Of a DNA stretch of 64,000 bases, positions 1 through 54,702 are shown piece after piece. The first letter of the stretch is position 1; the number at the start of each line of letters is the position of its first letter. A program made the translations under genes and the position numbers. The notes below the pieces were generated by a model that saw only the letters and a program-made list of their open reading frames with translations, was not told where the DNA came from and did not search any database. Origin of the DNA: Escherichia coli (GTDB lineage: Bacteria; Pseudomonadota; Gammaproteobacteria; Enterobacterales; Enterobacteriaceae); the NCBI RefSeq assembly GCF_046105845.1, contig NZ_CP151004.1, one strand, 5' to 3'.

Positions 1-689
1 GAGTCCACCATTGATCCGCTTTGATCAACCAGTAAGACCAGTTGCCATTGTTCACTGTGGCGCTTAATGCGGCTGTTAAAGCGGGGGGATTCGATATACA
101 ACTTGCCGTGTTGCGGATGCCAGTGTTGCAGGTTGGCGCGCAGCGTACTTTTGAACTCAAAGTTTCGCGCCAGTGGAATAAATGAGCGGCGACGGCGATC
201 GCGGACACCAGAAAAAGCCTGACGAACTTCCTTTGCCAGTCGCGCCATAATCTCTTCAACAACCTGGTGCACTATCCGGCGGGCGGCAGCCAGCACTTCG
301 GGATTCATCAGATGTTTGGTGTGCAAAACGGCGCGTAGCAGGCTTTCAGAAGGCTGCATACGTTCCAGCACGTCGAGATTCGTCACCACATCTTCAATGC
401 CGTAGCGCAGTACGGCATCGCTTTCCAGCCGCTCGATCACCCGTTGCGGAAACAGCGTGTGAATACTGTTGATCCACTCAGGGGTGGTGAGATTTGAGCC
501 ACCTAATCCACCGGAGCGTTCACCACGCTGGAGCCGTTCAGGATCGCGCCCGTACAGCCACTCCAGCGCGTGGTCTATCTGCCGGGCATTGTCATCCAGC
601 CCACAAAGGGTCGTTTCTGCCGCTTCGCCAAGAATTAATCGCCAGCGTTGTAGCTCACGGATAGTCAGAAGATCGTTCAGTTCAGACAT
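1..689 (-). CDS. yehP: VWA-domain protein, N-terminal portion only (gene continues past window start)
   Basis: Manual minus-strand translation from ATG at 689..687 gives MSELNDLLTIRELQRW...QLVLLVDQSGSMVD, open to the window edge; MIDAS-like DxSGS motif; start overlaps the upstream stop (ATGTCTGA). Confidence 0.8.
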   Translation of the reverse strand, partial: MSELNDLLTIRELQRWRLILGEAAETTLCGLDDNARQIDHALEWLYGRDPERLQRGERSGGLGGSNLTTPEWINSIHTLFPQRVIERLESDAVLRYGIEDVVTNLDVLERMQPSESLLRAVLHTKHLMNPEVLAAARRIVHQVVEEIMARLAKEVRQAFSGVRDRRRRSFIPLARNFEFKSTLRANLQHWHPQHGKLYIESPRFNSRIKRHSEQWQLVLLVDQSGSMVD

Positions 690-2961
690 GGAAAACTCCC
701 CAGTGTTGCAGCGATGCCAGTGCCTGCTGTTCGAGTTGTTGATGATGTGCAATGGCTTGCGGTGGACAATGCAACGGCATTTGCAGCGCTGAAACGGGAA
801 GCTGTGTGAGCTGGTAATGCTCAAGCACCTGATGCGCCAGCGTCCCGCGTTCTCGTGGTGGTAGCCAGGCCATCGCCGCGCGTAAATCGGGCAGGGCGTT
901 AATAAAATCGTCGTCACTCAGTTGATTTAAATGACTACTGAAACCGGCGATAAATGCCGGCTGACAGGCCAGTTGATGGCGGGCCAGCGCCAGCAAACCG
1001 TGCAGCGCTTCGCCGGATTGTGCCGGGGATAATTGCGCCAGCATTGTCAGCGCCGCTTCGGCACTGGCGTTGGGATGTTCCAGACGCATTAGTGCGCCAA
1101 GAGCCGCGCCGCGATCCAGCGCCGGGGCATGAATCGCCTGACTGCGGCGCTCCAGTAAGGCTACCGCCGCAGAAAGCGAAACGCCGGGTAAATTAACGCC
1201 GCTATGTAGATCGCGCAGGATATGGCAAAGCGTCTGCCAGCTATGCAGGTGAGCGTGAAACTCCTTTTCCTCCGGTCTGCCGTTGGATTCACACAGCCAG
1301 AGTGTGCGATCGATAGCCGCGCATAACGTCGTCTGTAATATCTGCGCGCCTTGCATACCGCTAATTTCATCCAGCCGCCATAAGGCGTATAGCACTTCCA
1401 GCGCCTGGCCCATTTCGGCAAACTGATTTTCCTGGGCGATTAATAATGTAAGTTGCTCCAGTAATTGTTGACTGAAGGACGCCAGACCCGCTAACGCCGC
1501 TTGGCTAAGACATGTGGTGATACTGCCGATTCCACCCGCGTCCAGCATATCGGCTTCTAATTTATTGCGTGCGGCTTCCTGGAGTGTGGCACCAAAGCAG
1601 GCGGCCTCAATCAATGCCGCATGCTGGCTAAGCGGGCGGGTTAATTTCCAGCGTTCTTCACCGTTGCCTGCAAGTGTCAGTGTGCTTCCCTGCTGGCGTA
1701 CAACCCCTGGGATCTCCAGTATTGCCAACCGATGTAACACCTGACTTTGCGCCAGTCCATCGGGGGTAAAGCGATTTAAGGTAAGCTCCGCCGGAAGAGA
1801 GATTCCGGTACGTTCCAGTTCGCAGGTGACATCTTTTGGCAGAGGCGGTTGTGGCGTAGAAGGGGCAAGTTTACCGAATCCGTCACCCGCTAATGTGTCT
1901 ATCAACGTTAGCAGAATCGGATCGGTATCGGGATGAATAACGCCGCGATAGCTCCACGGCAGCGGCGCATTCAGGGCTTCTTTAATCAGCGAGCCTGCTA
2001 TGGCATCCAGCCAGTCAGTGCGTAACGGTAGTGTATGACCACGCAACTGTGCCAGTGCCATCGCATGCAGATGAGCGGCAGCCATATCAGCGGTAGAAGC
2101 GGGCAATTTGTGCTGGCGCAAACGGGTAAGGATAGTTTTTAGCAGTTGTTCACCGGCCTGCTGTAGGCCCCACTGCCAGCACCAGTTTTGCCAGACCGGG
2201 GCAGGCATACCAGAAAGGTATCCTGCCAGCACATCAAGGCGCTTTTCACTGTAGGGGGTGAGATAACAACCTGTAACGGCATCATCCAGTAAGAGCAATT
2301 CTGGCGTGTTAATTACCTGCGGACATTCGCGCCACATTTTTGCCAGTGCCGGAGCGTGCCAGCCACCGCAGACAACTAACACGTCGCCATTATTTTGCTG
2401 CATCGCCCATCCAATCCAGCGGGCCATAAAGGCTTCGCGCTGACGATTGAGAACATCTCCGGGGGAGTCGCCCCGCAGTTGGGCAAAATAGTGCGCAAGT
2501 GCAGAGGGTAATGCAGTTTGCTGGCTTTCATCTTCGAACAAGTGATCCCACAGGGTGTCGCTGTTATCCATGCGGGTGGCACGCAGCAGCAAGGTCTGGC
2601 TTTCCTCTTGCGTATCAGGCGAATCGTCCTCTTCTTCACTCTGCGCCCAGCAAGGCAAATCGATGAAGTAAGTTTGTGCCTGAATACGACGAGCGGCTTG
2701 TAGCGCCTGCCACTCCGGCGAAAATTCAGCAAATGGCGTCCAGGCACCACGCCCGGGGGCTACACCGTCCTGATACTGGCAATAACTGTAAATAGCTACC
2801 GGAAGCTGGTGAGCTAACAACAGTTCGTCTACCCGGTCATTAAAATCAGCCGGGCCTTCAATCAACACGTATCGTGGCCGCTGGCTTTCGATTAACGATT
2901 TCACCAGCCGGGCGCAGGCCGGACTATGATGCCGGATGCCGACAATTAACGGCTCGCTCAT
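682..2961 (-). CDS. yehM: Large uncharacterized protein of the yehLMP cluster (759 aa from internal start MSEPLIVGIRHH)
   Basis: ORF 682..3102; the 759-codon version starting at 2961 avoids overlap with the upstream gene; recognised as E. coli YehM. Confidence 0.8.
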   Translation of the reverse strand: MSEPLIVGIRHHSPACARLVKSLIESQRPRYVLIEGPADFNDRVDELLLAHQLPVAIYSYCQYQDGVAPGRGAWTPFAEFSPEWQALQAARRIQAQTYFIDLPCWAQSEEEDDSPDTQEESQTLLLRATRMDNSDTLWDHLFEDESQQTALPSALAHYFAQLRGDSPGDVLNRQREAFMARWIGWAMQQNNGDVLVVCGGWHAPALAKMWRECPQVINTPELLLLDDAVTGCYLTPYSEKRLDVLAGYLSGMPAPVWQNWCWQWGLQQAGEQLLKTILTRLRQHKLPASTADMAAAHLHAMALAQLRGHTLPLRTDWLDAIAGSLIKEALNAPLPWSYRGVIHPDTDPILLTLIDTLAGDGFGKLAPSTPQPPLPKDVTCELERTGISLPAELTLNRFTPDGLAQSQVLHRLAILEIPGVVRQQGSTLTLAGNGEERWKLTRPLSQHAALIEAACFGATLQEAARNKLEADMLDAGGIGSITTCLSQAALAGLASFSQQLLEQLTLLIAQENQFAEMGQALEVLYALWRLDEISGMQGAQILQTTLCAAIDRTLWLCESNGRPEEKEFHAHLHSWQTLCHILRDLHSGVNLPGVSLSAAVALLERRSQAIHAPALDRGAALGALMRLEHPNASAEAALTMLAQLSPAQSGEALHGLLALARHQLACQPAFIAGFSSHLNQLSDDDFINALPDLRAAMAWLPPRERGTLAHQVLEHYQLTQLPVSALQMPLHCPPQAIAHHQQLEQQALASLQHWGVFHV

Positions 2962-2971
2962 GCATCTTTCC

Positions 2972-4060
2972 TCACGGCAGGCGGTGGCGAGCTTGATAAT
3001 AAGACTGCCAGTGAGCTTCTTTATGTGTGGCGACGCGCTGTTCGAAGTAACGGCGCAGACGCGCGCGATCTTCTTCGTTATCTTTGACGATGGTTCCGGC
3101 AATACAGTCCACCAGGTCGGCAGGCTCCCCCGCGCGATTCGCTAAAAACCAGGCGCGGACACCCACAGCATGGGCCACGTTAACGGCTTCAGCGGTGGAC
3201 ATAATCGCTGTCAGTGTATCCATTGACGTTTTCTTTTCGCCGTTGGCACGCAGATCGCGGAACGTGCGCACCAGTAATTCCAGTACCGCGTCAGGCACTT
3301 TATGCGGAATACCGCTATGGGCCAGCAAACGCGCCGAAGCACTGGCGACCAGTTCGAGCTCCTGGGCGAAATCCATAATCGGAAAGACAGTTTCAAAATC
3401 GAAGCGACGCTTTAGCGCAGCACTCATTTCATTGACGCCGCGATCGCGGGTATTGGCAGTGGCAATAATATTAAAGCCTTCCCGCGCATAGAGCTGACTG
3501 GCTTCACCAGTGAGTTCCGGCACCGTCATTACCCTGTCAGAAAGCATACCTAACAGACAGTCTTGTACTTCCAGCGGTGTACGCGTTATCTCTTCAAAAC
3601 GGACAATTTTGCCGTCGCGCATTCCCTGGTAAAGCGGGGCTGGGACCAGCGCTTCCGTTGACGGACCATGGTTGATAAGCAGGGCGTAGTTCCAGCCGTA
3701 CTTGATTTGATCTTCGGTGGTAGATGCGCCGCCCTGGATGGTTAACCCGGCATCGCCGCTAATAGCGGTTGCCAGTAATTCAGACAGGAGAGATTTTGCG
3801 GTACCCGGTTCCCCCACCAACATCAAACCGCGCCCGGTGGCAAGAGTGACTAACATACGTTCGACAGCGGAGGGACTAATCACCACTTTACGGCTAATAT
3901 TTTGCGCGCTATCGCCAAGGATAAAAGCACGGGCCGCAGGCAAACTTAACTGCCAACCGGGCGGGCAAGGTGCGTTATCATTTTGTTTTAATTTTGCCAG
4001 TTCATCGGCGTATAACACAGCAGCAGGCGGACGCTGCAGATGATTATTCTGCGGTGACAT
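2972..4060 (-). CDS. yehL: MoxR-like AAA+ ATPase (Walker A GEPGTAKS)
   Basis: ORF 2972..4126; 362-codon version starts MSPQNNHLQ at 4060; P-loop motif visible. Confidence 0.85.
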   Translation of the reverse strand: MSPQNNHLQRPPAAVLYADELAKLKQNDNAPCPPGWQLSLPAARAFILGDSAQNISRKVVISPSAVERMLVTLATGRGLMLVGEPGTAKSLLSELLATAISGDAGLTIQGGASTTEDQIKYGWNYALLINHGPSTEALVPAPLYQGMRDGKIVRFEEITRTPLEVQDCLLGMLSDRVMTVPELTGEASQLYAREGFNIIATANTRDRGVNEMSAALKRRFDFETVFPIMDFAQELELVASASARLLAHSGIPHKVPDAVLELLVRTFRDLRANGEKKTSMDTLTAIMSTAEAVNVAHAVGVRAWFLANRAGEPADLVDCIAGTIVKDNEEDRARLRRYFEQRVATHKEAHWQSYYQARHRLP

Positions 4061-4138
4061 ATATTCATCCCTGAAATGTATTAATGAAATAAACGATATT
4101 TTACGCGCAATAAATGTTTTGCGCATTAGTTGTTTGAA

Positions 4139-4628
4139 CGGAAAATATCTGGAAAGCAGATCACAGTAAATAAAAAAACCTGCTGGTGAGGCAGGTTCTT
4201 TTATTTACTATTTTCAGGCCCAACACCGCAGCCTGTGCAACATCGTGTTCCAACGAACGAATTATAACCATCGGTGGACCCCGTTGCAATTAAGATAATG
4301 AGATTTATAATCCAGACGGTTGGGACGTTGCGCCGGATCGGACCAATTTCAAGTCCTGGCTACCGGACGGGTGGTGCTGCAGGTGGTGCCCTGATCCGGA
4401 GTGCAACATCGTGGTCCAACATACGTAAACCAGTATCGACAGGCAGTGTAAGGGTAAGGTGCTGGTGTTGCGCTCCTTAATAAGGAGAGCGGATGGACAC
4501 GCAGACACAAAAGTTAACCGTGCTCATTGCTGTACTGGAGCTATTAGTGGCTCTGTTACGGTTGATTGATTTGTTGAAGTAATGGGCAAATTGAAACGCA
4601 TCTAAGGGGGAATACCGCTTCCCCCTTT
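4139..4628 (+). repeat. Type I toxin-antitoxin repeat unit 1 (zor/orz-like), about 490 bp
   Basis: Near-identical to unit 2 at 4751..5240; begins gaaaatatctggaaag, ends with hairpin aagggggaataccgcttccccctt. Confidence 0.7.
4493..4582 (+). CDS. 29-aa hydrophobic type I toxin peptide MDTQTQKLTVLIAVLELLVALLRLIDLLK (ZorO/ZorP-like)
   Basis: AGGAGA ribosome-binding site 7 nt upstream of ATG; absent from ORF track because it is under 60 aa; sequence recalled from memory as Zor-family. Confidence 0.6.
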   Translation: MDTQTQKLTVLIAVLELLVALLRLIDLLK

Positions 4629-4750
4629 AATAAAATGATTACATCTTCCATTAATTCACCTGATAACTTTTTTCTTATTTATAAATTCATCGATTTTATA
4701 ATTAACGTACCATTTCGCCGGGATGTGAATATTTATGGTGGCTATTGGCG

Positions 4751-5240
4751 AAAAATATCTGGAAAGTAGATCGCAGAAAATAAAAGAACCTGCTGGTGAG
4801 GCAGGTTCTTTTATTTACTACTTTGATGTTAAGTTACTGATAGTGCAACATGGCATCTCAACGAACGAATTATAACCACCGCTGGACCGTGTTGCAATTA
4901 AGATAATGAGATTTATAATCCTGACTGTTGGGAAGTTGCGCCGGATCGAACCCATTTCAAGTCCTGGCTACCGGACGGGTGGTGCCGCAGGTAGTGCTCT
5001 GATCCGGAGTGCAACATGGCGACTCAACATACGTAAATCAGTATCGACAGGCAGTGTAAGGGTAAGGTGCTGGTGTTGCGCTCCTTAATAAGGAGAGCGG
5101 ATGGACACGCTGACACAAAAGTTAACCGTGCTCATTGCCGTACTGGAGCTATTAGTGGCTCTGTTACGGTTGATTGATTTGTTGAAGTAATGGGCAAATT
5201 GAAACGCAACTAAGGGGGAAAACCGCTTCCCCCTTTAATA
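4751..5240 (+). repeat. Type I toxin-antitoxin repeat unit 2 (zor/orz-like)
   Basis: Tandem copy of unit 1 with scattered substitutions; terminal hairpin overlaps the 3' end of yehK. Confidence 0.7.
5101..5190 (+). CDS. 29-aa hydrophobic type I toxin peptide MDTLTQKLTVLIAVLELLVALLRLIDLLK (ZorO/ZorP-like)
   Basis: Same ribosome-binding site and frame as copy 1; one Q/L difference at residue 4. Confidence 0.6.
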   Translation: MDTLTQKLTVLIAVLELLVALLRLIDLLK

Positions 5241-5563
5241 AAGTAATATTCTATTAGTTGGTTGAATATATTCTGTAGTTTACGATTAAAAATTGCTATT
5301 ACAGTTTCAGGTGATTCACCTCGTAATTTCCGCTCATCAATACACTCATCTCTTATATAAATCAACGCATCATTTATTAGCGGGTCAGCATCTTCTCGAT
5401 CACGTTGATGAAATGTTGGACGTAGCCGGAATCGCTCCAGTCGATAGACAGAACCTGTAAATAATTCAGAGCGTTTATGGATCTCAAGCCTGAAGGAAAA
5501 CGGCTCTTCAGGTACAGGGGCCTCATAATCGTAAATAGTGATCAGCTCTTTTTGCACGATCAT
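5210..5563 (-). CDS. yehK: Small hypothetical protein; last 8 codons lie inside the repeat hairpin
   Basis: ORF 117 aa between yehI and the repeats; position matches K-12 yehK; exact start and C-terminus uncertain. Confidence 0.55.
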   Translation of the reverse strand: MIVQKELITIYDYEAPVPEEPFSFRLEIHKRSELFTGSVYRLERFRLRPTFHQRDREDADPLINDALIYIRDECIDERKLRGESPETVIAIFNRKLQNIFNQLIEYYFIKGGSGFPP

Positions 5564-5623
5564 CGCTTTTCCCGGTGGCAGGTCGTGTTAATAACGAGCA
5601 GTCGCATCACTGCCCGCTGTGTT

Positions 5624-8600
5624 TTAATGGAAAATAACGTCGGGTGCGCTTAACGCTTCACTCAAATCAAACACATCAAGTTCGGCAAAAGTGACAGATT
5701 TATTGTCACGGTATACACAAAGAGAACGGAAGCTCATTAGCGCTTTGCTATCAACATTGTAGCGGTTAAAACTGGATGAAAACTTAAGGACCAGCCGGTA
5801 CTCGCCCAGGCCATAGACAAATGCGTCCTCATAGCCTGACTCCCAGCCTTTGTATCGCATTCCCATAAGCTGCCCAACGGTAGCGGATTTACCTTCCCAG
5901 CGAGTCAGGCTGTTACTGGTTGACTCGTCAGGCGTGAGCAGCACCGTGCGGCGCGACAACTGGCGAAAAGGCGGCATAATTTCGTAATCGGCAAAAAGCT
6001 GTGCAAATTCACTGCGCATTTCTGCTGTCATTTCTAACGGGTGGGCAATGCCAATCAGAGCATCCGCAGGAAGGTCAATGGGCTCATCCTGCGCATTGCA
6101 GAACTCCCCCTCAGCGGCCACACGAAAGGCGTTGAGTAAACGACGCGGTTCATTTGCCGGATAAACACCCCATATTAATCGCTGAGTAACCAGGCGGGTA
6201 AAGGGATGATTAACAAACAGAGAACGAAAATCTGCCAGCGACCAGCGTCGGATGGTGCGCAGGGCCGTTTCAAGACGCGGGAGCAGGTTTTTGCTCACCT
6301 GAGTAGCATCTTTTTTTAGCCCTTTTAGTCGTGCCAGTGCCTCGGGCGCTTTCAGTTGATCGTCATCGGCGCGCAACCGTGGAACGCTTTTCTGGCGAAC
6401 GTTTTGCTGATCAAAGATAACCGGGTTGAGGTTTTCATCGAAGCGAACGGTAAACTGCCGGGGACCAAAATCAAAACTCAACGCCTGCGGATCATCAAGG
6501 CCCAGTGTTGGGACTAATCTGTCCGCTAACTCTTCCTGGCTTAGCCCGCGATTTTCTGCGACTACCTGAAGAAATTCCGCCGCGTTATCACGTAAGGGGC
6601 GGGATTTCGCCCGTTGCGATATATGATGCAGCTGCATCAGCGCCATATCATTATTCATCAGGGTAAGGATGTTCAGGCCACTGACAGCACGGGCAGATTT
6701 GCCTTCTTGTGGCCAGGCGAGGATCTGTGTCGTCAGATCCCGAGCCGTGCTTTCGTCACCAAAGAGACTTAACGCCAGAAATGCCCAGTTGTCTTTTGCA
6801 GGGGCACCAGCTTGTTGCCAGGCGGTGAAGAGATCCCAGGCAAAAGCTGCGAGCGTTTGTGGTTGGCAAAACGTTTTCAGTTGTTCCAGCCCGCTATAAA
6901 AACGTCCCCCCTGGGTAAAGCGCAGCATTTCGCCGATAATTTCCAGAGCGTCATCGGTAACAGGTTGATTATTAGTGATAAGGCGCGGCCTGGACCACAT
7001 TTGCGGATGCCAGAAATCAGGGGCTTTTGGCATGCGCGCCGGGTAAATTTCCAGCGGGTTCTGGGTAAGTATTTTTTCCAGGGCTGGCCACACATCAGCA
7101 CGATCCCAGCGGTTTGCCACGGTTTGTAGTAATTCGCCATGTCCCTGTTCGTAAAGTAAACGCAGGGCAAATAATGCAGCTTCGCTATTATCGCTGGATT
7201 TAATGAAGACAAGAGGGATAAGTGCAGTAGCCGTATGTTCCGGCCATTGTAAAATCCACTGGCGGGCCAGATCACGCTGCGCCGCGAAACGTCGCCAGAC
7301 GCGGGCAACGGGCAGGGCCAGTTCGGTTGCGCCGAAATTTAAAATTAACGGAAATGTTTCTTTTGGACGATGTGAAAAAGCCAACAGCAGACCTGGTAGA
7401 GCATCCAATCCGAAGATACTGAGAAAATAGTCCTCACCCGCAGACAGATGCTTTTTCTCATTGATACGTAGCCAGAAAGTCAAAGCCATCTCACGCGGCA
7501 ACTGCGCCAATAAATACAGGTTCCAGATACTCTTTTCCCGACGATAGCGTGAGTAGCTGTCATTTTCCCATATGTTAATTAACACTTCTACGTGACCGCT
7601 GCGAAGCGCCTGTTCTGCTAATTGAGCTTCCGGGGAGCTCCAGCCATTCATGATCTCTTCAACCCGCCCTGGGTAGTAATGCCACTGAACAATGAGTGAA
7701 TTGCGTGCAGCATCCAGTTTTCCGGGGAGTATATAATTCAAAAACAGCCATACATCATCTCCAAAACCCAGCTCCTGTAGTACAACTCGTCCACTTTTAT
7801 GTTCCATGCGTTCCGCAAGAGATTCCGTGCTGAAATAACGGGCAGACTCAGTGGCGGCAAGCCTCTCTCGTTCGCCTGGTTGCCAGTAAACTTGCGGCGT
7901 TAATTCGAACGGTGCCAAATCAAGACGTGGAACTGTCATTTTTTTCTTACTACGCCACGGTGGTGAAACGAGGATTTCAGGCAGATTGCTGTTATCGGTG
8001 CCATCAATAACCGGTTTGGGCGGTGCCGATAAATAACTATTCAGCACTGCCCGGGCTTGAGTACTTAACCACGGCATCACTTCTGCTGCCAGTTGTGGCT
8101 GCGATGCCATCAGCGTTTGTAACAGTGTACGCCAGTATTCATCTCGAGCTTTTTGCTGTGCAGGCAGCTTTTTGTCTTCGATGATTGGATAACCAGGGCG
8201 CGCAGGTGGTTCTTTTAGCGCCAGAAGCTCTGCCAGTGCGGCAAGCGTCGCATGGGGGAAATTTTTACTGTATTTAGCTACACGTTGCAGGCTGGGTTTG
8301 TTTTTATCAGCAACTAACAGCAGGGTGCGGATGACCTGCGGATGGTTAATTTGTACCAGCAGACTGCCGCAATCTTCTTTATGGGCATACATTGCCAGGC
8401 GTGGAACGGCTGCCAGTCCTTGTTCGCGCAAAAGGGCAGCGCAGGCCGCGTAGCCGAAGTGGTTTTCATGCGACATGTAGCTGGCTTCCCGATCGCTAAA
8501 TATATCCTGGCTCCAGTAGCGTTCGAGTTTTTTCACCGCTCTGGGGTCATTAGCAACAACTTTTAACCACTCCTTAGAATGAAAATGAGTCCGCGGGCAT

Positions 8601-9256
8601 TCAAGGTCTACCAACTCATTGGCGATTTCTGGTTTTTCCGGGAGGATCAGCGCAATAAAAGGGCGGCGAACTTTGGTTATTCCTGGCAGTGCGGCAATGA
8701 GTTTGTCGGCGCAACGCTGCCAGCTGCTTTCCTCTGCCAGAGAGAGATGCTTACGCAGTCGGAGATCGAATTCGTTATAGGTTTCTGAGCGATAACCATA
8801 GCCATAATCCTCGTCCTGATACTGCAATGTCACTAGCAGAGGATCACTTTCATAACACCGTGCAATAAACTGGCGTGCAATCACCACCTCAGTCGCATAT
8901 TCCAGTCCCTCTTGTTGGACGATTTCGTCGAGCAACTGTTGGCTATCATTTTGCGCGATACAGGCTAGCGCCGCCATTGTCCGGGCCGGAACTGAGGGTT
9001 TGTGTTCTCCGATCAAGTTGATGGCCTGCGTAATGGCCGACTGCCACTCCAGTGAAAAATTTTCATAACGCCAGACAATGTTTTTTTTCTTCTCAGCTTT
9101 TTGTAGCAATTCATCACCCAGTGTCTGGATGAGGCTTTCAGTGATAACAGGCACTGGTTCGCCCGGCCAACTGCGATGGCTGAGCGGCGTTTTGCCTTTT
9201 TTATATTTCAGTTCCACTTGGGCGTTATCCGCCAGCCACGGTAATTCCTTGTCCAT
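5624..9256 (-). CDS. yehI: 1210-aa uncharacterized protein, paralog of MolR (DUF4132-type C-terminal region)
   Basis: Single long ORF; strong similarity to the adjacent molR reading frame. Confidence 0.85.
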   Translation of the reverse strand: MDKELPWLADNAQVELKYKKGKTPLSHRSWPGEPVPVITESLIQTLGDELLQKAEKKKNIVWRYENFSLEWQSAITQAINLIGEHKPSVPARTMAALACIAQNDSQQLLDEIVQQEGLEYATEVVIARQFIARCYESDPLLVTLQYQDEDYGYGYRSETYNEFDLRLRKHLSLAEESSWQRCADKLIAALPGITKVRRPFIALILPEKPEIANELVDLECPRTHFHSKEWLKVVANDPRAVKKLERYWSQDIFSDREASYMSHENHFGYAACAALLREQGLAAVPRLAMYAHKEDCGSLLVQINHPQVIRTLLLVADKNKPSLQRVAKYSKNFPHATLAALAELLALKEPPARPGYPIIEDKKLPAQQKARDEYWRTLLQTLMASQPQLAAEVMPWLSTQARAVLNSYLSAPPKPVIDGTDNSNLPEILVSPPWRSKKKMTVPRLDLAPFELTPQVYWQPGERERLAATESARYFSTESLAERMEHKSGRVVLQELGFGDDVWLFLNYILPGKLDAARNSLIVQWHYYPGRVEEIMNGWSSPEAQLAEQALRSGHVEVLINIWENDSYSRYRREKSIWNLYLLAQLPREMALTFWLRINEKKHLSAGEDYFLSIFGLDALPGLLLAFSHRPKETFPLILNFGATELALPVARVWRRFAAQRDLARQWILQWPEHTATALIPLVFIKSSDNSEAALFALRLLYEQGHGELLQTVANRWDRADVWPALEKILTQNPLEIYPARMPKAPDFWHPQMWSRPRLITNNQPVTDDALEIIGEMLRFTQGGRFYSGLEQLKTFCQPQTLAAFAWDLFTAWQQAGAPAKDNWAFLALSLFGDESTARDLTTQILAWPQEGKSARAVSGLNILTLMNNDMALMQLHHISQRAKSRPLRDNAAEFLQVVAENRGLSQEELADRLVPTLGLDDPQALSFDFGPRQFTVRFDENLNPVIFDQQNVRQKSVPRLRADDDQLKAPEALARLKGLKKDATQVSKNLLPRLETALRTIRRWSLADFRSLFVNHPFTRLVTQRLIWGVYPANEPRRLLNAFRVAAEGEFCNAQDEPIDLPADALIGIAHPLEMTAEMRSEFAQLFADYEIMPPFRQLSRRTVLLTPDESTSNSLTRWEGKSATVGQLMGMRYKGWESGYEDAFVYGLGEYRLVLKFSSSFNRYNVDSKALMSFRSLCVYRDNKSVTFAELDVFDLSEALSAPDVIFH

Positions 9257-22154: not shown

Positions 22155-22181
22155 CCCCCTCATGATGAGGGGGCTTTTTTT
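22155..22181 (+). terminator. Terminator after yehA, overlapping the rcnB stop
   Basis: Perfect hairpin ccccctcatgatgaggggg followed by cttttttt. Confidence 0.75.
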
Positions 22182-22518
22182 AGCGATGATAAAAAATCTC
22201 ACCGTCGTAGGCTTTAATGATTTTACCGTCGGTGTCGCTGATCAACACGTACGCGCCACCCATATAGGTCCAGTGCGTCCCGGCATCAGGCGCGGGCAGG
22301 TTACGTAACTGCCACTGCTTAATGTTGTACTCATCGGTGCGGTACATCTCTGGGACGGTATCGCCTGGTTTGAAATGCTTAAAGTCAGCAATGAAACTGC
22401 TTAACTCATACTTAGAAATTCCCGAGGTATTGGTCGAACCCGCGGTGGCTGGTGCGGCCCAGGCGGCACTGGTAACCAGCAAAAGCGCACCCAGCAACAT
22501 CTTATTTTTAATGGTCAT
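22180..22518 (-). CDS. rcnB: Periplasmic nickel/cobalt homeostasis protein
   Basis: 112 aa from MTIKNKMLLGALLLVTSAAWA; downstream of rcnA. Confidence 0.85.
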   Translation of the reverse strand: MTIKNKMLLGALLLVTSAAWAAPATAGSTNTSGISKYELSSFIADFKHFKPGDTVPEMYRTDEYNIKQWQLRNLPAPDAGTHWTYMGGAYVLISDTDGKIIKAYDGEIFYHR

Positions 22519-22736: not shown

Positions 22737-23561
22737 TTATCGCATTATGCCCATAAAGCCATGCACACCCATATACACACCAACTAAGCCAATCAACAGA
22801 CTGGAAAAATAGGGGGCGCGTTTAGCGAGAGTGTTAAATCCGCTCCAGCGTTTTGCGACCTGCTGAACGCTGATTGCTGCGCCAACGCCTACGGTGACAA
22901 GCGTTAACGCCAGGCCAATGCTGAAACTGACGACCAGTGTTGCGCCCAGTGTCAGGGCTTTCAACTGAATGCAAATCAACAGCACGGTAATTGCTGCCGG
23001 GCAGGGGATAAGACCACCTGTTAAGCCAAATAGCAAAATTTGCCAGTTGGTGACCTCTCTACCATCAAAGCGTCGTTTAATGTCATTGGCATGGGCTCGT
23101 GCATGGGCATCCTGATACTCGCCATGTTCGTGATGGTGATGATGTCCATGGTCGTGGTGATCTTCGTGATCATGGTGATGATGCTCATGATCATGCCCGT
23201 GCATATTCTCCAGCCAGTTGCGTTCGCCGCGCCAGGTACGCCAGAACATCCAGAACGCGGTGCCAATAATGATCACCGCGGAAATCAACTGGAGCCACGG
23301 TTCCGCCGACTGCGTAGTAAAGCGTTTGCTGATCACCATCCCGCCAAAGGCAATCAACCAGACCACCGCGGTATGCGAAATGGTTGCTGCCAGTCCGAGC
23401 ATCACCGCCTGTTTAATGGTGCCTTTGATGGCGATGATAAACGCCGCCATCATCGTTTTTGAGTGCCCTGGTTCCAGGCCATGAAGCGCACCAAGTAAGA
23501 TGGCGCTGGGGATGAAGAACCAGGCGTTTCCTTGCTGAAGAAGAGTGGTAAATTCGGTCAT
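22737..23561 (-). CDS. rcnA: Nickel/cobalt efflux permease with His-rich loop
   Basis: 274 aa; loop HGHDHEHHHHDHEDHHDHGHHHHHEHGEY. Confidence 0.95.
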   Translation of the reverse strand: MTEFTTLLQQGNAWFFIPSAILLGALHGLEPGHSKTMMAAFIIAIKGTIKQAVMLGLAATISHTAVVWLIAFGGMVISKRFTTQSAEPWLQLISAVIIIGTAFWMFWRTWRGERNWLENMHGHDHEHHHHDHEDHHDHGHHHHHEHGEYQDAHARAHANDIKRRFDGREVTNWQILLFGLTGGLIPCPAAITVLLICIQLKALTLGATLVVSFSIGLALTLVTVGVGAAISVQQVAKRWSGFNTLAKRAPYFSSLLIGLVGVYMGVHGFMGIMR

Positions 23562-23598
23562 GATAATAATTCTTAGTATTAATTCGGCAATCTGATTC

Positions 23599-23633
23599 TA
23601 CTCCCCCCCAGTACCTGATACTACCCCCCAGTA
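23599..23633. promoter_or_regulatory. Two tandem RcnR operator sites (TACT-G/C tract-AGTA)
   Basis: tactcccccccagta at 23599..23613 and tactaccccccagta at 23619..23633 in the rcnA-rcnR divergent intergenic region. Confidence 0.85.
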
Positions 23634-23681
23634 GATTAATAGTGCTATGATTTTTCATGTTCTTGTTAACCAGGTGTTGCC

Positions 23682-23954
23682 ATGTCTCATACAATCCGTG
23701 ATAAACAGAAACTGAAAGCGCGTGCCAGTAAGATTCAGGGCCAGGTCGTGGCGCTCAAGAAAATGCTCGACGAGCCGCACGAATGCGCTGCAGTTTTACA
23801 ACAGATTGCTGCTATCCGTGGCGCGGTAAACGGTCTGATGCGGGAAGTGATTAAAGGTCATCTGACGGAACACATCGTTCACCAGGGGGATGAGCTAAAA
23901 CGTGAAGAAGATCTGGATGTCGTTCTGAAGGTGCTGGATTCATATATCAAATAA
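23682..23954 (+). CDS. rcnR: Ni/Co-responsive transcriptional repressor (CsoR/RcnR family)
   Basis: 90-aa ORF divergent from rcnA. Confidence 0.95.
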
Positions 23955-24039: not shown

Positions 24040-24176
24040 TCGCAACCAAACGACTCGGGGTGCCCTTCTGCGTGAAGGCTGAGAAATACCCGTATCACCT
24101 GATCTGGATAATGCCAGCGTAGGGAAGTCACGGACCACCAGGTCATTGCTTCTTCACGTTATGGCAGGAGCAAACT
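24040..24176 (+). ncRNA. TPP (thi-box) riboswitch in the thiM leader
   Basis: Contains ctggggtgcccttctgcgtgaaggctgagaaatacccgtatcacctgatctggataatgccagcgtaggga immediately upstream of thiM. Confidence 0.9.
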
Positions 24177-40312: not shown

Positions 40313-40339
40313 AAAAAATAAGCCCGTGTAAGGGAGATT
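40313..40339. other. Bacteriophage P2 attachment core sequence (unoccupied att site)
   Basis: Exact match to the 27-nt core aaaaaataagcccgtgtaagggagatt as recalled; no flanking prophage genes. Confidence 0.6.
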
Positions 40340-40483
40340 ACACAGGCTAAGGAGGTGGTTCCTGGTACAGCTAGCATTTTATGGGTTATGTTTTTCAGCG
40401 AAACGGATGATAACCTTAATAAATGCAGCTGTATGTGATCGGTTTCTAAGAATTTTCCATCCGGGAAAAATAATCGAAATTAA

Positions 40484-53689: not shown

Positions 53690-53850
53690 TAAGCCGATGA
53701 TTTCAGCGGGACGCTGAAACGGGAAAGCCCCTCCCGAGGAAGGGGCCATAAATAAGGAAAGGGTCATGATGAAGCTACTCATCATCGTGGTGCTCTTAGT
53801 CATTAGCTGGCCAGCTTACTAAGACTACCAGGGCGGGGGAAACCCCGCTC
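53690..53850 (-). ncRNA. Sib-type antisense sRNA antitoxin, copy 1 (approximate ends)
   Basis: Inferred from known ibs/sib architecture; hairpins flank the ibs ORF. Confidence 0.45.
53766..53822 (+). CDS. Ibs-family toxin peptide MMKLLIIVVLLVISWPAY
   Basis: 18-aa hydrophobic ORF with AGGAAAGGG ribosome-binding site; not in ORF track. Confidence 0.75.
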   Translation: MMKLLIIVVLLVISWPAY

Positions 53851-54019
53851 TACCCTCACTCCTGAAAGTATGCCTTCACGATAAGATTGTCAATCTGCAG
53901 GCTTTGCAGTCTGCGATCCTGCCAGCAAATATTCTTTGCGAGACGTTACGCAATAATCACACTGGAAACTATTTTATCCGCAAGTCAGCGATAGACTGCA
54001 TTCAGGGCGAAAGGAGGTA

Positions 54020-54180
54020 AGCCGACGATTTCAGCGGGACGCTGAAACGGGAAAGCCCCTCCCGAGGAAGGGGCCTTAAATAAGGAAAGGGTCATGATGA
54101 AGATACTCATCATCGTGGTGCTCTTAGTGATTAGCTACCCAGCATACTAAGACTACCAGGGCGGGGGAAACCCCGCTCTA
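54020..54180 (-). ncRNA. Sib-type antisense sRNA antitoxin, copy 2 (approximate ends)
   Basis: Inferred from repeat architecture. Confidence 0.45.
54094..54150 (+). CDS. Ibs-family toxin peptide MMKILIIVVLLVISYPAY
   Basis: Second repeat unit, same architecture. Confidence 0.75.
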   Translation: MMKILIIVVLLVISYPAY

Positions 54181-54349
54181 CCCTCACTCCTGAAATTATG
54201 CCTTCACGATAAGATTGTCAATCCGCAGGCTTTGCAGTCTGCGATCCTGCCAGCAAATATTCTTTGCGAGTCGTTACGCAATAATCACAGAGGAAACTAT
54301 TTTATTCACGCGTTAGCGATAGACTGCATTCAGGGCGAAAGGAGGTAAG

Positions 54350-54510
54350 CCGACGATTTCAGCGGGACGCTGAAACGGGAAACCCTCTCCCGGAGAAGAG
54401 GGCTTTTAATAAGGAAAGGGTTATGATGAAGCACGTCATCATACTGGTGATACTCTTAGTGATTAGCTTCCAGGCTTACTAAGAACACCAGGGGGAGGGG
54501 GAAACCTCTC
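54350..54510 (-). ncRNA. Sib-type antisense sRNA antitoxin, copy 3 (approximate ends)
   Basis: Inferred from repeat architecture. Confidence 0.45.
54423..54482 (+). CDS. ibsA: Ibs-family toxin peptide MMKHVIILVILLVISFQAY
   Basis: Third repeat unit; peptide matches recalled K-12 IbsA. Confidence 0.75.
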   Translation: MMKHVIILVILLVISFQAY

Positions 54511-54702
54511 CCTAACCCTCACTCCTGAAATTATGTCACTCCGCCCTTAGTGTCAATCGACGGCTCTCCGTTCTTGCGAGGCGAATAGCAAAATTTTCTG
54601 CGCCGCCGGGCCTAATTCTGAAAGTTTCTTCGTTTGCTCTTATTTCATTATTGCAATCGGTATGATACCGGACCTCGATAATTCTCTAAGAAAGGATTTC
54701 TT

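Follow-up and report, generated by a model that had tools for sequence, protein, structure and literature searches.

The two short palindromes that lie between rcnA and rcnR on this Escherichia coli chromosome are almost certainly a tandem type 1 RcnR operator, common to the divergent rcnAB and rcnR promoters. They fall within a stretch of 64,000 nucleotides that was analysed as a whole and is referred to here as the window; unless a strain or locus is named, all coordinates are positions in it. The operator pair is already known in full—it is the canonical E. coli RcnR operator, real but ordinary because it is identical to the sequence characterised in the laboratory strain. We add a compact map of operator sites, promoter elements, and transcription start sites (TSSs) in window coordinates (Table 1), along with a survey of the motif across species. 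The motif footprint is useful for regulon annotation and biosensor design, and no discovery is claimed.

Read on the plus strand, site 1 is TACTCCCCCCCAGTA (TACT-C7-AGTA) and site 2 is TACTACCCCCCAGTA (TACT-A-C6-AGTA); on the rcnA-sense strand the corresponding 15-mers are TACTGGGGGGGAGTA for site 1 and TACTGGGGGGTAGTA for site 2. An earlier note on this DNA had described these two palindromes, 5 bp apart, and its coordinates and letters are exact. Both sites sit inside the 120-bp gap between the divergent rcnA and rcnR open reading frames (ORFs), and the spacer places their centres 20 bp apart. Searching both strands of the window with the relaxed pattern TACTNNNNNNNAGTA (TACT-N7-AGTA) returned two matches, both of them the operator sites; in shuffled windows the mean was 0.28 matches, with two or more in 3 of 100 shuffles. 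The stricter pattern TACTGGGGGGNAGTA fits both sites on the minus strand with no mismatches, which bears out the note's claim that they follow the known RcnR recognition pattern. When up to two mismatches to TACTGGGGGGNAGTA were allowed, no third match was found in the 64 kb window (0.18 expected; none of 100 shuffles reached two).

Table 1. Features of the rcnB–rcnA–rcnR region, ordered by window position; operator sites are given at the confidence stated in the text, and site positions in the last column are relative to the TSS named.
Feature	Position	Strand	Evidence and remarks
rcnB, 112-aa periplasmic accessory protein, downstream of rcnA	22180..22518	-	ORF; Pfam RcnB, 67.8 bits
rcnA, 274 aa, NicO-family Ni/Co efflux, His-rich loop, 23 His in total	22737..23561	-	ORF; Pfam NicO, 234 bits; NCBIfam NF007454, 557 bits
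rcnA main TSS	23588	-	25 reads; 27-nt 5' UTR; site 1 at -25..-11, site 2 at -45..-31
-10 hexamer TAGAAT of main PrcnA	23595..23600	-	Position relative to TSS; overlaps outer AGTA half-site of site 1
RcnR operator site 1, rcnA-proximal	23599..23613	-	Pattern matches, K-12 identity, TSS mapping, literature
rcnA minor TSS	23609	-	12 reads; 48-nt 5' UTR; site 1 at -4..+10, site 2 at -24..-10
Spacer, 5 bp, CCTGA (+) / TCAGG (rcnA-sense)	23614..23618	.	
RcnR operator site 2, rcnR-proximal	23619..23633	-	Pattern matches, K-12 identity, TSS mapping
Extended -10 TGcTATGAT of PrcnR	23643..23651	+	Position relative to TSS; TG and TATnnT partly conserved across species
rcnR TSS	23659	+	11 reads; 23-nt 5' UTR; site 1 at -60..-46, site 2 at -40..-26
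rcnR, 90 aa, Ni(II)/Co(II)-responsive repressor	23682..23954	+	ORF; Pfam PF02583; NCBIfam RcnR equivalog NF011613

Our account of RcnR recognition draws on quotations and reviews of the primary work. As quoted in PMC7055735, PMC3902906, and PMC7105576, apo-RcnR binds TACT-G6-N-AGTA, of which two copies are present between the rcnA and rcnR genes (Iwig & Chivers, J Mol Biol 2009; Blaha et al., Biochimie 2011); the same work, as relayed by reviews, assigns one RcnR tetramer to each site in the type 1 tandem of the CsoR/RcnR family. The window has this layout, with two copies in its rcnA–rcnR intergenic region. In these secondary accounts RcnR is described as reading the TACT/AGTA arms together with the A-form-like shape of the unbroken G/C tract, and reviews describe the operator as common to the rcnA and rcnR promoters. 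Moved behind a heterologous promoter, it gives RcnR-dependent, cobalt-inducible expression. For the identical K-12 sequence, the literature reports that apo-RcnR binds and that Ni(II)/Co(II) releases it, and it describes Ni(II)/Co(II) as bound through the N-terminus, His3, Cys35, His60, and His64, upon which DNA affinity drops. The text of PMC5709419 gives affinities and does not contain the Salmonella rcnA operator sequence.

K-12 RcnR and the repressor encoded beside the operator are the same protein (100% identity), with His3, Cys35, His60, and His64 in place; it is the H-C-H-H (W-X-Y-Z) ligand motif that sets RcnR apart from CsoR and FrmR. Against the RcnR equivalog model NF011613 the protein scores 197 bits (cut-off 138), and the FrmR model gives it 76.5 bits, under the cut-off of 133. 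The note had gone on to say that the palindromes confirm an intact Ni/Co-responsive switch. At the sequence level intactness holds—RcnR is that of K-12 with its ligands kept, the rcnA and rcnB ORFs are both full length, and the promoter elements defined by the K-12 TSSs are present—but "confirm" goes a little far, since the functional claim is drawn from identity to a characterised allele. Of the 5,426 complete E. coli genomes, 5,363 match a 261-bp stretch across the rcnA–rcnR region, strain 19KM1831 at 100% identity; RefSeq gives the gene order at the E. coli locus as yehA-like/rcnB/rcnA/rcnR/TPP riboswitch/thiM/thiD. The window's TPP riboswitch (24046-24142, plus strand), directly downstream of rcnR and upstream of thiMD, is a standard E. 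coli feature, as is a CyaR sRNA gene at 40316-40401 (minus strand).

The 35 bp of the operator match E. coli K-12 at every base, and the spacing, orientation, flanking genes, RcnR, promoter elements, and TSS context are alike. Over the intergenic region as a whole there is a single difference from K-12 (strain J53), at 23659, with G here and A in K-12; this is exactly the rcnR +1 base, and the exchange is purine to purine and outside the operator. RcnA differs from its K-12 counterpart by at least one residue in the His-rich loop, which reads HGHDHEH here and HGHDYEH in K-12. In 543 of 5,361 E. coli genomes (about 10%), identity to the window's 161-bp stretch reaches 99% or more. A more drastic change is seen in E. 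coli ETEC4085 (locus L006, 1694-2499; about window position 23576), where an inserted IS5-family element sits between the operator and the rcnA start codon and parts rcnA from its RcnR-controlled promoter.

TSSs were taken from a K-12 genome-wide map (Kim et al. 2012, PMC3415461, Table S1), which gives 50 nt of upstream sequence for each, and were transferred by identical sequence; the K-12 read counts are low, at 11–25 reads. Placed on these TSSs, the operator pair spans -45 to -11 of the main rcnA promoter (PrcnA) and -60 to -26 of the rcnR promoter (PrcnR), so that it overlaps core elements of both: the -10 and -35 regions of PrcnA, and the -35 region of PrcnR together with DNA upstream of it, this -35 region being covered by site 2. 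A generic promoter scan had proposed two -35/-10 pairs, one with its end 1 bp ahead of the rcnA ATG and the other overlapping the rcnR start; we rejected both, as they are contradicted by the K-12 TSSs.

This geometry suggests a simple mechanism. Two apo-RcnR tetramers, with centres 20 bp or roughly two helical turns apart, would lie on one face of the DNA. Because the sites together lie over core elements of both promoters, we infer that bound RcnR keeps RNA polymerase off PrcnA and PrcnR alike; Ni(II) or Co(II) would then weaken RcnR–DNA binding, leading to derepression of rcnAB (efflux) and of rcnR (autoregulation). Judged by its letters, then, this E. coli is a carrier of the unaltered textbook RcnR-controlled Ni/Co efflux switch.

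The motif was also examined beyond E. coli by scanning one genome per species, from about 100,000 species and 298 Gb of DNA, for the exact pattern TACTGGGGGGNAGTA-N3-8-TACTGGGGGGNAGTA; exact matches were required, so the scan gauges the specificity of the motif for rcnR loci and not the share of rcnR loci that are without it. The exact tandem was found in 77 species loci, all of them beside an rcnR and/or rcnA homologue and in the same order and orientation, where chance would supply about 5e-5 (2 strands x 6 gap lengths x 2.98e11 / 4^28) in 298 Gb. The genera include Escherichia, Salmonella, Citrobacter, Enterobacter, Klebsiella, Raoultella, Kosakonia, Rahnella, Serratia, Hafnia, Erwinia, Tatumella, Vibrio, Shewanella, and Chromobacterium, with others besides. 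With the window proteins as tblastn queries, 74 of the 77 loci show an RcnR homologue (58–100% identity) whose start is 45–99 bp away from the motif, and in the other three the sequence ends 42–101 nt from the motif on the rcnR side. From the other end of the motif an RcnA homologue starts at a distance of 32–42 bp in 69 of the 77; the eight that remain are four at a sequence end, one with a partial match 568 bp off, and three from Shewanella. Across Enterobacterales, Vibrio, Shewanella, and Chromobacterium, we take the tandem motif as a diagnostic mark of rcnR loci.

The three Shewanella loci come from uncultured Shewanella spp. (L011 631-1137, L033, and L036) and carry the exact tandem operator by an rcnR homologue that is 67–68% identical; tblastn found no NicO gene on the rcnA side in them. 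In L011, a divergent ORF at 787-1137 encodes a small membrane protein of 116 aa with sub-threshold GlpM-like similarity, and this ORF may be a different RcnR target.

Alignment of the 77 loci shows which positions are held and which are free. The N of the motif is T in the rcnR-proximal site in every locus and G in the rcnA-proximal site in all except one (76/77). Of the tandem spacers, 61 have a length of 5 bp and 16 one of 6 bp; the longer form is found in 15 loci with RcnR 58–64% identical to that of E. coli and in a single Escherichia sp. with identical RcnR. Species differ in the letters of the spacer, save for the T adjoining site 2. Beyond the motif, the information content drops to background at all but two places. 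Right after the rcnA-proximal AGTA stands GAAT, its T present in 77/77, which completes the TAGAAT -10; on the rcnR side, a partly conserved TG...TATnnT fits the extended -10. The 15 loci with divergent RcnR and a 6-bp spacer belong to Enterobacter, Klebsiella, Lelliottia, and Chromobacterium (L019, L020, L047, L051, L052, L055, L057, L059, L060, L062, L070, L078, L079, L083, and L087), and in the Klebsiella members the rcnR start is farther off, at about 98 bp.

Related operators are found on plasmids and in the wider repressor family. The rcnR–rcnA module of IncHI2 plasmids of Enterobacteriaceae is like the window in having both 15-mers (15/15 each), a 5-bp spacer, and divergent genes; it differs in the spacer sequence, AAATA (1/5 identical), in the flanks (22/37 and 20/48 identical), and in its proteins, with RcnR 92% identical and RcnA longer, at 369 aa by annotation. 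In the 90–95% identity band, which corresponds to this IncHI2-type module, there are 411 plasmid records. On a Ralstonia solanacearum megaplasmid (L008 2400-2500), an rcnR homologue 62% identical lies by one perfect site whose tract runs the opposite way and which reads TACTCCCCCCTAGTA on the rcnR-sense strand; 6 bp further on comes a degenerate second one, TGCTACCCTCCCGTC. The type 2 operators of CsoR (for example in Streptomyces lividans or B. subtilis) are likewise G/C-tract pseudopalindromes with GTA-containing arms, recognised by a tetrameric four-helix-bundle repressor; however, they have two short G/C tracts with 2–4 bases between them, about 11 bp between the AT-rich arms, and two tetramers per site, whereas RcnR sites have one unbroken tract, 7 bp between the arms, and one tetramer per site. 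A type 2 CsoR operator was considered for the window and is ruled out by the single unbroken C7 or C6 tract and the 7 bp between arms. Compared with the RcnR sites, the FrmR operator of frmRAB has a shorter tract (C4/G4) between arms that differ in sequence and are longer (ATAGTAT); FrmR itself has Pro2, is without the fourth His ligand, and responds to formaldehyde and not to Ni/Co. An FrmR operator was likewise rejected, as the window sites are without ATAGTAT-type arms and a C4-5/G4-5 tract and their neighbours are rcnA and rcnR, not frmA.

The window has tracts of canonical length (C7 and AC6), but the length differs in a minority of E. coli genomes. Variants were counted by identity bands to a query with C8 in site 1 and AC7 in site 2, which makes the count a lower bound: 88 of 5,361 E. 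coli genomes are at least 99% identical to this query, and at least 88 thus have longer tracts, for the most part C8 in site 1. Three of these 88 have exactly C8 and AC7, one has C9 and AC7, and about 84 are longer by just one base. We read the sequence of five C8/AC6 genomes, and all have C8 in site 1—four from the group of 88, plus O103 ML775—and the C8 carriers read include an O121:H19 strain, PCN061, and MS 115-1. The variant loci (L003, L004, and L088-L092) correspond to window positions 23603-23609 and 23623-23629. Longer tracts shift the half-site spacing from 7 bp to 8–9 bp inside the -35/-10 spacer of PrcnA. Several O121 or O121:H19 assemblies fall in the group with one extra base, and this recurrence therefore favours inheritance over random sequencing error. 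It is conceivable, although we consider it unlikely, that the tracts are mutational hot spots whose variants could heritably reset or abolish RcnR repression and so give lineage-specific Ni/Co efflux set-points; this idea concerns the locus in general and not the window's copy. In E. coli BE2-5 (L090), which also has a C8 operator variant, rcnA is annotated as frameshifted (a pseudogene), which may reflect a homopolymer or assembly-quality issue or a real decay of the system.

Other explanations of the palindromes have to be weighed against the RcnR operator. They could be chance intergenic matches with no regulatory role, given that the arms are just 4 bp and that two TACT-N7-AGTA sites did arise in a few shuffles; yet no shuffle in 100 produced two matches to the G6 pattern, the 35-bp tandem is kept by rcnR/rcnA in 77 species while the flanks diverge, and the sequence is identical to the experimentally characterised K-12 operator. 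Because of the conservation we exclude chance, which we hold to be exceedingly improbable. The inverted repeats, of which the region does have short ones, could instead form a DNA or RNA hairpin (a terminator, attenuator, or cruciform) and be no protein site at all. Folding of 23590-23645 gives only -2.5 kcal/mol (z = -1.33), a value that 21 of 200 shuffles equalled or bettered, a terminator scan found no terminator-like site in the region, and the main TSSs place the region in promoter DNA upstream of them, which is not transcribed; the probability of a hairpin role is, in our view, vanishingly small.

A protein site need not be an RcnR site, and a different regulator, such as the paralogue FrmR or Fur, might be the main ligand. 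FrmR and RcnR share about 40% identity, and FrmR operators, too, are palindromes with C/G tracts; Fur-box-like sequences with 13–14 of 19 matches to GATAATGATAATCATTATC occur at 23556-23580, beside the rcnA start. An influence of iron on rcnA was reportedly described by Koch and colleagues in 2007. The regions upstream of frmR (L009 and L010), however, carry a different motif, ATACT-C4-TATAGTAT and ACTATAGTGGGGTAT, and not TACT-G6-N-AGTA; the Fur-like matches lie outside both palindromes and are at background frequency, with 44 of at least 13/19 in the window; and the motif co-occurs with rcnR homologues across the 77 species. We therefore judge another main regulator to be highly improbable. 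It is also very unlikely that the C-tracts serve chiefly as slippage-prone homopolymers that switch promoter strength by phase variation, with RcnR binding secondary. Such a role would draw on the position of the tracts inside the core rcnA promoter and on their differing lengths among E. coli genomes (C7, C8, or C9 in site 1; AC6 or AC7 in site 2), but for a contingency locus a tract of 6–7 bases is short, no fewer than 98% of the matching E. coli genomes are outside the longer-tract group, and some of the length calls may be homopolymer sequencing errors. Additionally, 77 of 77 species have G6-N, though here the search pattern itself imposed G6-N, and the recurrence of C8 in several O121/O121:H19 assemblies (one, strain 16-9255, sequence-checked) speaks for inheritance over frequent switching. 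A slippage role is not indicated for the window's copy, and RcnR binding remains our reading of both sites.

Elsewhere in the window, two loci of antitoxin sRNAs were noted. Three tandem Sib antitoxin sRNA genes lie on the minus strand at 53751-53893, 54079-54221, and 54408-54556 (Rfam SIB_RNA, 140–150 bits); K-12 has two Sib genes, sibA and sibB, at the corresponding locus. Two OrzO-P antitoxin sRNAs (Rfam RF02083) are found at 4172-4247 and 4782-4855, also on the minus strand, and the two copies imply a duplicated zor-orz type I toxin–antitoxin locus. Beside each OrzO-P copy, at 4294-4312 and 4902-4920, is a Fur-box-like sequence with 15 of 19 matches.
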